A stretch of DNA of 10,918 bases from Candidatus Heimdallarchaeota archaeon. Its GTDB lineage: Archaea; Asgardarchaeota; Heimdallarchaeia; Heimdallarchaeales; Heimdallarchaeaceae. Both the position numbers and the translations under genes were made by a program. The DNA is taken from assembly GCA_030668825.1 (NCBI GenBank), contig DAOVET010000086.1, forward strand, positions 1-10,918. Reading direction: 5' to 3'. Below, in pieces: positions 1,753 through 9,800 of this stretch (positions are counted from its first letter, which is position 1; each line of letters starts with the position of its first letter). A model generated the notes under the pieces. That model saw only the letters and a list, made by a program, of their open reading frames with translations, ran no database searches and was not told the DNA's origin.

Positions 1753-2949
1753 ATGGGAAAAACAATAGTCAAAGAAGACGAAGAAATCGAACTTATCCAT
1801 GTTGATGGTGATTTGGAAGTACAAGATGGAGCCACAATAGTTGTACCAAAAAGTGCTGAAAGATTAACTGTTGATGGTAGGTTGCTTAGTAGAGGAGATA
1901 TCATAATCAAAGGATCTGTTTCAGCAGAAGAGATTAGACATTCCAATGGATATCTTGAGATTGAAGGTGATGTAAAAGCTCAAAAAGTGAAGGTTCATAG
2001 TAGAAGTGTAAGGAACGGTTCAGTGCTAGAAATTATTGGATCGTTAGAATGTAATGAAGCAGAGATAGAAGGAGCCTTAGAAGTAGATAAAGATCTCTCT
2101 TGTGATGATTTGGAGATAAATGGATCTTGTGTTGTACATGGGGTTGCACAAGTTAATGATTACGAAATAAATGGATCCGCCAAACATGGAATGGATTTAA
2201 GTGCTGGTGACCTAGAAGTCAATGGATCACTAAAAGCTCAAGCTAATGTTACTGTTAAAACTGATTTTCAACTATCTGGTTCTGCCAAAATTGAGGGAAA
2301 ATTAGAAGCTCCTGAGGTTGATATAGGTGGGTCTTTATCCTGTTATGAACTCATATCAAATTCTGTTGAAATCGGAGGAGCAGCAAAGATAGAAATTTCA
2401 AAAATCGAAAAAGAATTGAATGTTGGTGGCTCTTTCAAATGCACAGGAAACATGATAGCCCCTACAGTAAGCTGTAATGGAGCTTGTGGTTTTGGTGATG
2501 AATCAGTAATTCAGAATCTAGTGATAAATGGTTCTACCAAAGTTGGAATAAATTTCAAATTTGATACTATCAAAGTCAATGGTGCCTTTAAAATGGGTGA
2601 TAATGCAACTGGTAATGAACTAACTATTAATGGTTCTTGTGGAGCAGAAGGAAATCTAAAGCTTAAAGGAGATTTACAAATTAATGGATCTTTATCAGCT
2701 TCCACACTTGAAGCTAATGAGATAAAGATTGAAGGTAGCATGACTGTTGATGAAGCTACTGCCAAATTTGTTTATGTTGGAGAGGATTCCAGAGTAAGAG
2801 GAATTATAAGAGCTGATAATGTGGAAGTTGATGATGGAGGACGTGTAGATCACATCATTGCTGATAAAGTCAAATTAGGTGAAGACACTAGAATTGGAAA
2901 GCTAGAAGCTAATGATATTGATGCAGACTCATCCGCGAAATATAAATAA
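1753..2949 (+). CDS. Bactofilin-like (polymer-forming cytoskeletal family) beta-helix repeat protein, 398 aa
   Basis: Nearly the whole protein consists of ~17-aa repeats (LEINGSCVVHGVAQVND / YEINGSAKHGMDLSAGD / LEVNGSLKAQ...), rich in V/I/G/D/E. No signal peptide or TM segment is visible. GTGAT, an RBS-like sequence, precedes the ATG and TTTAAATA lies at 1699-1706. Confidence 0.8.
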   Translation: MGKTIVKEDEEIELIHVDGDLEVQDGATIVVPKSAERLTVDGRLLSRGDIIIKGSVSAEEIRHSNGYLEIEGDVKAQKVKVHSRSVRNGSVLEIIGSLECNEAEIEGALEVDKDLSCDDLEINGSCVVHGVAQVNDYEINGSAKHGMDLSAGDLEVNGSLKAQANVTVKTDFQLSGSAKIEGKLEAPEVDIGGSLSCYELISNSVEIGGAAKIEISKIEKELNVGGSFKCTGNMIAPTVSCNGACGFGDESVIQNLVINGSTKVGINFKFDTIKVNGAFKMGDNATGNELTINGSCGAEGNLKLKGDLQINGSLSASTLEANEIKIEGSMTVDEATAKFVYVGEDSRVRGIIRADNVEVDDGGRVDHIIADKVKLGEDTRIGKLEANDIDADSSAKYK

Positions 2950-3042: not shown

Positions 3043-3366
3043 ATGCCAGCAGGTAACAGAACAAGATATGATATTTATGCAGACGTAATCTCTGTTCTAC
3101 AATTTTATGGTGAAGCTGGCATTTCACAAATTGCAAGAAGGGCCAATTTACCTATAGACAGGGCCAAGGGCATAATTCACTTCATGTTATCACGTGGTCT
3201 TATGATTAAATATGAAAATCCCCAAAAAAGACCTGCAGTAATCTATATCTGTACGACAAGAGGTTATCAATATCTTGAAATGTATAAACAGCTTTCCCAT
3301 ATGGTTGTTGAGATAACAGAAGATGAAATGGAGTTCGGAACAGAATTTAAAATCGAAGGAATTTAA
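3043..3366 (+). CDS. Archaeal winged helix-turn-helix DNA-binding protein (HTH_45-like)
   Basis: The pattern RTRYDIYADVI...ISQIARRANL...LSRGLM...YICTTRGYQYLEMY matches the archaeal 'R(S/T)RxxIxxdIL...ANL...Y..T.kG..fL' wHTH family. It has a good RBS and an acidic tail. Confidence 0.85.
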   Translation: MPAGNRTRYDIYADVISVLQFYGEAGISQIARRANLPIDRAKGIIHFMLSRGLMIKYENPQKRPAVIYICTTRGYQYLEMYKQLSHMVVEITEDEMEFGTEFKIEGI

Positions 3367-7354: not shown

Positions 7355-8923
7355 ATGAGTCAGATAGATGAAACTGGGAAGAAAGGATTGATTGTCATAG
7401 GTGCTGGAATAACAGGATTAACTTCAGCTGTTACTTGGGCACGATTCCATGATACAAAGAAAGATCCTGTGTTAATTATAGAAAAGGAACCAAGAATAGG
7501 AGGGTTTGTTACTTCCTACGAACGTGAAGGTTATCTTTTTGATACTAGTCAAATTATTCCAAACTGTAATGATATGTTTGAGCTTTTAGGGATAGAAATA
7601 GATCTTAAGAAATTCAAAGGATATTATACACGAATTTTCCTTGTTAATCCTGAAACAGAAGAAGTAACTAAAATTGAGTTACCTTCAGGAGTGGAAGTCT
7701 TCAAGCAGAAGCTGATGAAGGAATATCCTGATAATGCAAATGAAATAGAAAAATTCCTTGACCATTCTAGAGCAATGTTTCTAGAACTGTTTAAGCTAAA
7801 AACAGAACCTAGTTTTATTGAATTATTGAAGACAATCGTCTCTTGTCCAAAAATTGTTAAGCATGGTTCTAAAACTTTCAAAAACTACTTTGATCAATTC
7901 GGTATAACCAATCCTGAAGTGGTAGAAATTTTTGATGCATTTGCAGCTTTTAGTGGATTACCAGGAGACAGAGCTGCTGCCCTTATGACACTAGGTGCAA
8001 TGAATTCAGTACTTGACAACGCTTACAGACCAACAAAAGGCTTTATTGAATTAGCCAAGCAATTTGAAAAAAGATACAAGGAGCTAGGAGGAGAGGTGCT
8101 TCTTAAAACAAGAGTTGAGAAAATTCTAGTTGAAAATGGTAAGGTTAAAGGTGTTCAAGTAGAAGGTGGAAAGAAAATTTATTCTGATTATGTCATAACT
8201 ACTATCGACCCCAAAGTGTCTATGAAAAATTTGGTAGGATTAGAGACAATTAGTGAAGTAGATGAGAAATTTGCTGAAAAAGTTGAAGAGGTAAAAATGT
8301 CTCCATCTTCAATAAACATAGCCTTGGGTTTAGATGATAAATTAGACCTCGCAGGATTAGGCATGGATTGTGGTTACAATGTTGTCACAACTGGAGGAGA
8401 ATCATTCTCTAAATTGTTTGAAGAATACGAAAAAGGAAATATGGCTTTTACAGAAAAGCAGTTTCATATGGGTGTGATATGTCCATCATTAACAACAGGT
8501 GGTAAACCTAACATTACCATTCGTGTAGTACCTATAGGACTAGGTGATTGGGTAGAATTACGTGAAAACAATCGTAAGGAATATAATAAGAAAAAGGAAG
8601 AAGTATCTAATTTCTTTATTGATCTAGTAGAAAAATATTTGATTCCAGACCTCAAGAAGCATATAATTGTAAAAGACGTATCTACACCAGCAACATATGC
8701 ACGATATTCAGGTTCACCAACAGGATCAATTTATGGAATGGCACCTTTCTCAGACAATTTTGGTAGAACACGTCTGAAAATGCGAACACCAATTGAGGGA
8801 TTATTCCAACCACTCTTTTCTCACGGTATTTTTGGTTGTATGTTGGGTGCTTTGCAAGTAAATGACATGATACTTAATCGCGAAATATTAGGAGGAAATG
8901 CGCGTTTAAAGCCAAAAGAGTAG
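7355..8923 (+). CDS. FAD-dependent oxidoreductase, phytoene desaturase (CrtI)/retinol saturase-like family
   Basis: Rossmann motif VIGAGITGL, then EKEPRIGGFVTSYEREGYLFDT, LGGEVLLKTRVEKILVENGKVKGV, and STPATYARYSGSPTGSIYG...RTPIEGLF. Start is ATG 7355 or GTG 7349. The substrate cannot be inferred. Confidence 0.9.
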   Translation: MSQIDETGKKGLIVIGAGITGLTSAVTWARFHDTKKDPVLIIEKEPRIGGFVTSYEREGYLFDTSQIIPNCNDMFELLGIEIDLKKFKGYYTRIFLVNPETEEVTKIELPSGVEVFKQKLMKEYPDNANEIEKFLDHSRAMFLELFKLKTEPSFIELLKTIVSCPKIVKHGSKTFKNYFDQFGITNPEVVEIFDAFAAFSGLPGDRAAALMTLGAMNSVLDNAYRPTKGFIELAKQFEKRYKELGGEVLLKTRVEKILVENGKVKGVQVEGGKKIYSDYVITTIDPKVSMKNLVGLETISEVDEKFAEKVEEVKMSPSSINIALGLDDKLDLAGLGMDCGYNVVTTGGESFSKLFEEYEKGNMAFTEKQFHMGVICPSLTTGGKPNITIRVVPIGLGDWVELRENNRKEYNKKKEEVSNFFIDLVEKYLIPDLKKHIIVKDVSTPATYARYSGSPTGSIYGMAPFSDNFGRTRLKMRTPIEGLFQPLFSHGIFGCMLGALQVNDMILNREILGGNARLKPKE

Positions 8924-8947
8924 AAATGTATGGTGGGGACTGGGTGA

Positions 8948-8979
8948 GTACCATCCATTAGAACGCGTCTAGATTGGAT
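8948..8979 (-). other. tRNA intron 2, non-canonical T-loop position 59/60, 32 nt
   Basis: Sequence ATCCAATCTAGACGCGTTCTAATGGATGGTAC. The central helix pairs U54-U55-C56-A57 with UGGU (U.U, U-G, C-G, A-U), with bulges AA^A and AC^U. Flanking helices are TCCA/TGGA and the T-stem, with a distal TAGA/TCTA hairpin. Confidence 0.85.
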
Positions 8980-9001
8980 TTTGAACACCCGACCAATTGG
9001 T

Positions 9002-9033
9002 TTCTTCGTGGTTCTTTGCCTAAGCAAAGTTCT
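9002..9033 (-). other. tRNA intron 1, canonical position 37/38, 32 nt
   Basis: Sequence AGAACTTTGCTTAGGCAAAGAACCACGAAGAA. The central helix pairs C32-U33-C34-C35 with GAAG (one C.A mismatch), with 3-nt bulges AG^A and AA^A. Internal hairpin CTTTGC-TTAG-GCAAAG. Confidence 0.9.
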
Positions 9034-9100
9034 CTGGAGCCAACCACTCTACCGGACTGAGCCAAGTCCCCGACCTATTGCTCGTTGTTTTCTCATCACA

Positions 9101-9120
9101 TATTCTTTTAAGGTTTTCTT
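9101..9120 (-). promoter_or_regulatory. BRE/TATA promoter of tRNA-Trp
   Basis: Minus strand AAGAAAAC-CTTAAAAG-AATA, with the TATA 34-41 nt upstream of the mature 5' end, implying a short leader. Confidence 0.7.
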
Positions 9121-9161
9121 TATGCTATTGCAATACAAAGCAAAATCCGCATAAAATTAGT

Positions 9162-9800
9162 TTATCTTAATTTAGGTTCTTTAATCATTCCCCAGTTTGT
9201 TATTTCAGTTTCTGGAATTTTCATTTCATCAATCACTTCAAATCCTAAATGCTCATATAAGCCAACATTCCCTTGAAAATTTGTTTCTAAATAAACAGGA
9301 TAACCTTCCTTCTCTATATATTCTAGCATTGGTTTAATCAGAGCACTTCCATATCCCTTCCCTTGATATTTGGGCTCAATACCAATACTCGCTAAATACC
9401 AGTGAGGTTCTTTCATTATTTCTTTATGTTTCTTCAGTATAATATCAGTTAATTGTTTAATTTCTCTTGTAGATCGTTTTCTTTCATCCTTCTGTTTTGA
9501 CATCGCCCAACCCATACTAAGTGCCCCACTTCTAATTGATCTCCAGATACCCATGTGTTCTTTTCCTGGAGGTAACCATTTTGCAACTCCTTCTATTTTG
9601 TTAGTAGGAGAATAAACCTTTCCACATTTTAGCCCATCTTTAATCAGATATCTCCACAAAAAAGGAGTAAATTTCATTCTTTCTTCAGCATTTGGGTAAA
9701 TCAAACAGACTAATGGATCCTCCTGAAAGGCTCTCGTTAAGACCATAGTAGCTTTTTCAATATCCTTCCTTTGAACTAGATATAACCCCTTAAACACCAT
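9162..9800 (-). CDS. GNAT family N-acetyltransferase (puromycin N-acetyltransferase-like architecture), 212 aa
   Basis: LTRAFQEDP, GVAKWLPPG, HWYLASIGIEPKYQGKGYGSALI and PVYLETNFQGNVGLYEHLGFEV are present. Confidence 0.93.
   Translation of the reverse strand: MVFKGLYLVQRKDIEKATMVLTRAFQEDPLVCLIYPNAEERMKFTPFLWRYLIKDGLKCGKVYSPTNKIEGVAKWLPPGKEHMGIWRSIRSGALSMGWAMSKQKDERKRSTREIKQLTDIILKKHKEIMKEPHWYLASIGIEPKYQGKGYGSALIKPMLEYIEKEGYPVYLETNFQGNVGLYEHLGFEVIDEMKIPETEITNWGMIKEPKLR

Follow-up and report, generated by a model that had tools for sequence, protein, structure and literature searches.

The locus at 9071..8931 on the minus strand of a 10,918-nucleotide stretch of Candidatus Heimdallarchaeota DNA (the window, meaning the whole stretch that was analysed) is a genuine tRNA-Trp gene of a Heimdall-group Asgard archaeon. 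The gene has the anticodon CCA, is 141 nt long and consists of three exons and two introns, one in the anticodon loop and one in the T-loop. It is very probably functional as the only tRNA-Trp gene detectable in its genome, with both introns removed by protein-dependent splicing and with a T-loop intron that would have been gained on the branch to this species from an intron family of the genus. An intron at the position of the first is found in every related tRNA-Trp locus that was extracted, and the second insert is present in none of them.

Exons, introns and predicted splice sites

All parts of the gene lie on the minus strand. Exon 1 (9034..9071, 38 nt) holds the 5′ strand of the acceptor stem, the D-arm, the 5′ strand of the anticodon stem and loop positions 32-37, as given by the ARAGORN cloverleaf, and is the same or nearly so in 29 related loci. 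It is followed by intron 1 (9002..9033, 32 nt), which occupies the canonical position 37/38 and has an internal 6-bp hairpin and a relaxed bulge-helix-bulge (BHB) motif. Exon 2 (8980..9001, 22 nt), delimited by splicing in silico and by the related loci, carries position 38, the 3′ strand of the anticodon stem, the variable loop, the 5′ strand of the T-stem and T-loop positions 54-59. Intron 2 (8948..8979, 32 nt) interrupts the T-loop at 59/60 and includes, at 8959-8973, a 15-nt hairpin core that recurs in T-loop introns of further tRNAs from the genus. Exon 3 (8931..8947, 17 nt) supplies T-loop position 60, the 3′ strands of the T-stem and acceptor stem, the discriminator A and an encoded CCA, and its assignment is backed by compensatory acceptor changes in relatives.

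Once both inserts are cut out, a mature tRNA of 77 nt is obtained, with an acceptor stem of 7 bp, a D-stem of 4 bp, and anticodon and T-stems of 5 bp each. All 21 of the 21 stem pairs in this cloverleaf are standard, and the anticodon loop (CUCCAGA) and T-loop (UUCAAAU) have 7 nt each. The length is 77 rather than 76 because of one additional base in the D-loop, which places the inserts at Sprinzl positions 37/38 and 59/60. In archaeal tRNA-Trp the discriminator A73 and the G1-C72 pair serve as identity elements; the gene carries G1-C72 as well as a discriminator A ahead of the encoded CCA. The initial annotation had proposed a tRNA-Trp gene of three exons with introns at these two positions, and its coordinates are borne out by in-silico splicing, by ARAGORN and by the related loci, just as the two 7-nt loops that it expected are present in the spliced 77-mer.

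The ends of intron 2 are unlike the flanking exon bases, and therefore the intron cannot be slid along the sequence. For intron 1, judged by eye, placement at 37/38 is the sole one that fits bulge-helix-bulge geometry. ARAGORN places this intron 2 nt further 5′ (loop CUCCAAA), a position that was rejected for its lack of BHB geometry.

In the BHB at 59/60, the T-stem forms the outer helix and T-loop positions 54-57 lie opposite the four intron bases ahead of the last two. The central helix is made up of U-U (a mismatch, beside the 3′ bulge), U-G, C-G and A-U, or three pairs out of four. Both bulges, AA^A and AC^U, are canonical 3-nt bulges, the inner helix has 4 bp, and the 3′ cut falls 2 nt past the central helix. 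At 37/38 the central helix, again read by eye, consists of C-G, U-A, C-A (a mismatch) and C-G, with 3/4 paired; AG^A and AA^A form the bulges, and a 6-bp hairpin lies within the intron. The strict hBHBh′ motif, with two 3-nt bulges and a 4-bp helix between them, is formed by neither intron. A relaxed BHB, having at least one canonical bulge between helices as broad-specificity endonucleases accept, is present at both. The initial annotation's BHB-type motif at each insert thus stands in its relaxed form and falls in its canonical one, the central helix being 3/4 in each. The motif is absent from the RNAfold minimum-energy fold, which has a 6x6 internal loop instead.

The genome encodes the enzymes expected of such a processing route. 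Two ORFs score above the PF01974 cut-off for tRNA_int_endo (100.8 and 54.6 bits), and their PDB matches are EndA chains. The ORF of 183 aa has its best matches among crenarchaeal EndA chains (3p1z_B, E=1.4e-38), and the other, of 180 aa, is a divergent paralogue that also matches the chains named NEQ261 and PAE0789, which are presumably structural subunits. As predicted proteins, the two fit the (alpha-beta)2 enzyme that has been reported for Asgard archaea (PMC5829648). RtcB is encoded as well (PF01139, 529.9 bits). In this assembly the RtcB gene is split between two contig ends (C107:8104-9387 and C2:42585-42764), and the two parts overlap in model positions (16-426 and 1-57); the gene could be interrupted by a contig break or by an intein, or one part could belong to a second, partial copy.

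An A/T-rich box at 9104..9121 (minus strand), 33-50 nt upstream of the mature 5′ end, is likely the BRE/TATA promoter element of the gene. It is intact at the window locus, and a box is found at the same distance in 23 of the 25 related loci shown, the exceptions being L015 and L023. From this putative conserved promoter, a transcript with a 141-nt body and two 32-nt introns would be produced. Both introns would then be removed by the archaeal protein pathway, in which a heterotetramer-type splicing endonuclease, composed of a catalytic alpha subunit and the divergent paralogue, is predicted to cut both bulges of the relaxed BHB at 37/38 and at 59/60. Ligation of the exons by RtcB would yield the 77-nt tRNA with its two restored loops. 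Transcription and splicing are here inferred.

Detection by tRNA finders and tRNA content of the genome

The genes adjoining tRNA-Trp share 87-92% identity with metagenome-assembled genomes (MAGs) titled Candidatus Heimdallarchaeota, which agrees with the Asgard-like origin that had been supposed from gene content. The host assembly (G000) amounts to 2.76 Mb in 138 contigs, has a G+C content of 33.4% and is 90.6% complete. Elsewhere in the window, a 398-aa ORF at 1753-2949 (plus strand) contains two bactofilin-domain stretches (PF04519, E=3.9e-17), here in an Asgard archaeon; its neighbours are peptidase (S9, S15) and GNAT acetyltransferase genes.

In the raw window, no tRNA is found by ARAGORN or by Rfam, either at the gathering threshold or at E<=10. 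The sole Rfam matches at E<=10 in the window, to snoR29 (E=8.2) and DUF805b (E=8.1), are regarded as chance. ARAGORN makes no call on the raw locus, nor on a form from which the anticodon intron alone has been removed. When only the T-loop insert is removed, it reports a tRNA-Trp with a 32-nt intron, and the doubly spliced 77-mer is called tRNA-Trp(cca). A natural orthologue (L002), in which the exons and intron 1 are identical and the T-loop intron is absent, receives an Rfam tRNA score of 53.9 bits against a cut-off of 29 and serves as a proxy for the spliced form.

The same holds across the genome, as neither ARAGORN nor Rfam gives a tRNA-Trp anywhere in the 2.76-Mb assembly. The initial annotation had foreseen that scanners would miss the gene and that the genome might appear to lack tRNA-Trp, which is what occurs; the separate intact copy that would have spoken against its reading is found neither among the 39 places listed by Rfam as tRNA nor by BLAST. 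The locus at 9071-8931 is therefore most likely the sole detectable tRNA-Trp(CCA) gene of the genome and, judging from its sequence, a functional one. As the assembly is 90.6% complete, a second gene could lie on a missing contig.

Two further genes of this genome are affected in a similar manner. The gene for tRNA-Phe(GAA) (C105:26936-27040, plus strand) has a single intron of 31-33 nt at 59/60 and no anticodon intron, and it scores 23.6 bits with Rfam, under the cut-off. The gene for tRNA-Pro(TGG) (C105, about 3137-3244, minus strand), likewise with a single 31-33-nt intron at 59/60 and none in the anticodon loop, is not listed by Rfam at all. ARAGORN and Rfam thus give this MAG no tRNA-Trp, under-score its tRNA-Phe and omit its tRNA-Pro(TGG). 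Since each of the three genes carries a T-loop intron, tRNA counts and statements of "missing" tRNAs for such genomes will be wrong.

ARAGORN and Rfam also return no tRNA-Tyr, no tRNA-Ile and no complete tRNA-Met in the assembly, and a search of it with the tRNA-Tyr gene of a same-genus genome (G018) gave nothing useful. An intron-containing Met-like (CAT) gene is truncated at the end of contig C76, and the other absent genes may be either interrupted or left out of the assembly. In addition, a tRNA-like gene flanked by two tRNA-Gln genes (C108:10978-11049, minus strand; Rfam 48.8 bits) is reported by ARAGORN as tRNA-??? with the two-letter anticodon "(ta)", which suggests an odd size of its anticodon loop.

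The tRNA-Trp locus in relatives and metagenomes

The 141-mer was compared by BLAST with 60 related genomes, 24 of the same genus and 36 others. A tRNA-Trp was recovered by this search in 24/24 same-genus genomes, as well as in some other genomes of the family. In most relatives, query positions 1-92 are directly joined to positions 125-141, skipping the T-loop insert. Thirty loci were extracted; the window supplies one of them, and five come from named MAGs that are possibly the same as other genomes of the set. An insert at 37/38 is present in 30/30 of these, with lengths of 27-85 nt. No orthologue without the 37/38 intron occurs among the 30 loci, and the junction there is placed by the size of the resulting loop and by BHB geometry.

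The 32-nt insert at 59/60 occurs in the window locus only (1/30). It is absent from all 29 related loci that form the survey of relatives suggested by the initial annotation, and in 28 of these the sequence is uninterrupted across the predicted 59/60 junction. The exception is G014 (L024), where an anticodon intron of 85 nt is accompanied by a 39-nt insert at the same 59/60 site, whose interior is unrelated to intron 2. Besides folding, the 59/60 boundaries thus have the confirmation of naturally occurring alleles that lack the intron. The gene structure itself lies beyond chance, since related loci carry the same gene minus the 8979-8948 insert and joined at the predicted junction.

The exons are highly conserved, with a mature tRNA-Trp sequence that is identical in 23/30 loci. 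Across the six distinct mature sequences, stem cells are paired in 126/126 cases, and double compensatory changes are found at four acceptor pairs (4-70, 5-69, 6-68 and 7-67). The hairpin of intron 1 covaries among relatives. Additional inserts occur in two of the related genes: that of G016 (L014) has an extra 30-nt insert following mature position 43, and that of G022 (L026) an extra 32-nt insert in the D-arm following mature position 23. A single tRNA-Trp locus was seen in each of the 24 same-genus genomes, save for a second partial match in G022, 3.7 kb away. The loci closest to the window in their flanks (86-87% identity over about 2.6 kb) are all without the 59/60 insert, and one gain on the species branch is thus the simplest account. 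The anticodon intron would be ancestral to the genus and the T-loop intron acquired on the branch to this species.

Metagenomes of cold seeps or marine sediments contain the stretch in whole or in part, in 20 rows from 11 studies, with no RNA run among those listed. Contigs of public runs were compared with it over 8600-9400, with bridging defined as 31 letters past the junction. Run X9 has a contig of 930 nt that matches 8600-9058 with 0 differences. The contigs of X7 (8600-9009) and X12 (8720-9008) likewise show 0 differences each, and extend 30 and 29 letters, respectively, beyond the inner junction, just short of the 31-letter rule. X7 and X9 are not independent of the assembly, as they may be its source samples; X12 is not flagged as a source. 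A second contig of X12 omits precisely 8948-8979, with 16 differences in the flank at 8826-8947 and 0 on the opposite side. This contig indicates that an intron-less relative co-occurs in the X12 sample, and it may itself represent a switch of path in the assembly graph. The intron-bearing contigs of X7 and X12 end at 9008-9009, as expected of a de Bruijn assembler if a sample contains both intron-bearing and intron-free alleles. Run X20, labelled "RNA? probably DNA", contains a 186-nt contig (8913-9098) with both introns present, which is uninformative on expression or splicing.

These data bear directly on whether the insert exists in the organism. An origin of the insert in misassembly or chimerism of the MAG is extremely improbable. 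Chimeric contigs do occur in MAGs, and the second X12 contig, which differs on one side of the gene only, resembles such a path switch; however, the X9, X7 and X12 contigs match the intron-bearing form exactly, one of them from a run not flagged as a source sample, and the breadth of recovery across 11 studies points the same way. It is also quite improbable that the T-loop insert is disabling and that the locus is a tRNA-Trp pseudogene, its working copy residing on an unassembled contig. The assembly is incomplete and split into 138 contigs, tRNA-Tyr is likewise not found in it, and the central helix of the T-loop BHB has three of its four pairs where most introns of the family have all four. 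Against this, the exons are 100% identical to those of functional-looking orthologues and show no other lesion, the promoter box is intact, and the insert has the site and the bulge geometry of the introns in tRNA-Phe and tRNA-Pro(TGG) of the same genome. Moreover, apart from the partial match in G022, one tRNA-Trp locus per genome was seen in the 24 same-genus genomes searched.

A further reading would make the 59/60 intron ancestral to the genus, with precise loss in the relatives. Precise intron loss is a known process, and the 39-nt insert of G014 shows that a second tRNA-Trp is interrupted at this position. However, the interior of that insert is unrelated, and the 28 loci that lack any 59/60 insert include both the closest in flanks and those with an identical intron 1, so that many independent precise losses would be needed in place of one gain. 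Ancestry of the intron is accordingly very improbable, and the T-loop intron of this functional-looking gene is best read as a lineage-specific gain.

The T-loop intron family and known systems

A pattern combining the start of the T-loop with the hairpin core of intron 2 is present in 20/24 same-genus genomes, in 1-3 copies each, and in 0/36 genomes of other genera; the reversed core pattern has 0 matches anywhere in the genomes searched. A degenerate form of the core occurs exactly three times in the host assembly, every time in a tRNA T-loop (Phe, Pro and Trp), and its reversed pattern does not occur there. When the insert was removed from 24 family loci, ARAGORN typed 10 as Pro, 7 as Phe, 3 as Tyr, 1 as His(gtg) and 1 as Asp (in G008), with 1 unresolved (in G016) and the Trp of the window. 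The locus called His(gtg), from G024, is a tRNA-Tyr by its likeness to the gene of G018. Introns of the family resemble each other across isotypes, with identities of up to 0.88 between Pro and Phe and up to 0.87 between Pro and Tyr; within a genome, Pro and Phe introns are 0.76-0.81 identical. A separate T-loop-intron scanner, which needs a perfect T-stem and a TTCRA loop and is thus not a full census, gave many false positives in coding DNA, and its tRNA matches were Phe, Pro and Trp only. A heuristic based on T-stem closure mis-sized two introns, that of G016 and that of the window.

The Trp intron shares the 15-nt core at 8959-8973 identically with the tRNA-Phe intron of G006. None of 1000 shuffles reached 15 identical letters, the maximum being 12. 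Compared over its whole length with 22 family introns, the Trp intron is at most 0.72 identical, a level also attained in one of 300 shuffles. The case for homology is therefore made by the 15-nt core, whole-length identity being inside the shuffle range. A near-identical donor of intron 2 was not found in the assembly by blastn-short, whose other matches are of at most 13 nt, the level of chance. The core copies in tRNA-Phe and tRNA-Pro of the host represent another sub-variant, and the closer sub-variant is carried by the tRNA-Tyr of relatives. The Trp intron is best understood as a diverged member of a genus-specific 59/60 family found also in tRNA-Phe, Pro, Tyr and Asp. An att remnant of a mobile element was considered as the source of intron 2 and rejected, since the 3′ part of the tRNA is not duplicated and the insert is merely 32 nt long.

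Outside the genus, a tRNA gene in another family of the class (L041, in G055), probably for Arg(CCG), has a 37/38 intron together with a 59/60 intron of roughly 30 nt, the first 11 nt of which resemble the start of intron 2. T-loop introns as such therefore exist beyond the genus, unlike the hairpin-core family.

The central helix of the BHB is fully paired (4/4) in 19 of the 22 other family introns tabulated, as against 3/4 in the Trp intron of the window and 2/4 in the Asp intron of G008. Given its U-U mismatch and G-U pair, where most of the family has four pairs, intron 2 could be a poorer substrate. The two sporadic introns thus have the weakest central helices of the family, which amounts to a prediction on the substrate tolerance of the Asgard endonuclease. 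By the sequence comparison, the gained intron possibly arrived by copying between tRNA genes. A tentative extension, offered with less than even confidence, is that an active genus-specific family of 59/60 introns copies itself among Heimdallarchaeota tRNA genes, probably by gene conversion through near-identical T-arm flanks. The Trp intron here and the Asp intron in G008 would then be fresh arrivals with BHB helices not yet optimised, and selection for spread or for splicing of the element would act on the conserved hairpin core, including its YGCGY loop.

The locus provides a clean case of intron evolution among the prokaryotes most closely related to eukaryotes: the exons and intron 1 are as in relatives, one additional intron is found in one species, and the core of this insert matches same-site introns of other isotypes. 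The arrival of archaeal tRNA introns can be put to the test here in a concrete setting. The shared T-loop intron family may be the part that interests specialists.

Position 59/60 is presumably a recurrent intron site in the Thermoproteales. According to one review, this order has multiple-intron tRNA genes with non-canonical BHB introns (Sugahara et al. 2007/2008) and intron transposition (Fujishima et al. 2010; reviewed in PMC4033280). Both systems feature short, protein-spliced introns at non-canonical positions besides 37/38, similar introns across tRNA isotypes, an endonuclease of the heterotetramer type and genes on which standard scanners fail. They differ in that the host here is a genus of Heimdallarchaeota (Asgard) and not a crenarchaeon, and in that most tRNAs are described as disrupted in the Thermoproteales, whereas each genome here has only about three 59/60 introns of a single family.

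Within the Asgard archaea, a Heimdallarchaeota MAG was among the material of Kaneta et al. 2018, which describes an (alpha-beta)2 splicing endonuclease with an L1 loop (PMC5829648). To judge from its genes, the present genome may follow that arrangement: it encodes a pair of tRNA_int_endo paralogues, each about 180 aa long, and the best matches of one are crenarchaeal EndA chains. In two other Asgard classes, 92-95% of tRNAs are stated to bear introns (Valentin-Alvarado 2024; PMC11291895), and a 2026 preprint describes hidden introns, T-arm introns at BHB sites and many gains on terminal branches (bioRxiv 10.64898/2026.10.13.758758). These two studies resemble the present case in their Asgard hosts, in tRNA genes with several introns and with introns at non-canonical positions, in T-arm introns bounded by BHB motifs, in many gains on terminal branches and in a share of introns missed by annotators; their focus is on intron-rich classes. 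Multi-intron tRNA genes with non-canonical introns, including those of the T-arm, are thus already in print for Asgard archaea, and the initial annotation's expectation that such a gene might be undescribed for the lineage is upheld only for the architecture of this gene and its restriction to one species, both of which appear to be new.

The preprint further states that intron families common to several isotypes are almost absent from its focal Asgard lineages (1.5% at 80% identity), and leaves undecided the route by which Asgard tRNA introns arrived (bioRxiv 10.64898/2026.10.13.758758). In contrast, the Pro/Phe and Pro/Tyr T-loop introns of this genus reach identities of 0.81-0.88. If the copying family proposed above is real, it would constitute an intron transposition system like that of the Thermoproteales in Asgard archaea, where the 2026 census saw no general route of arrival.
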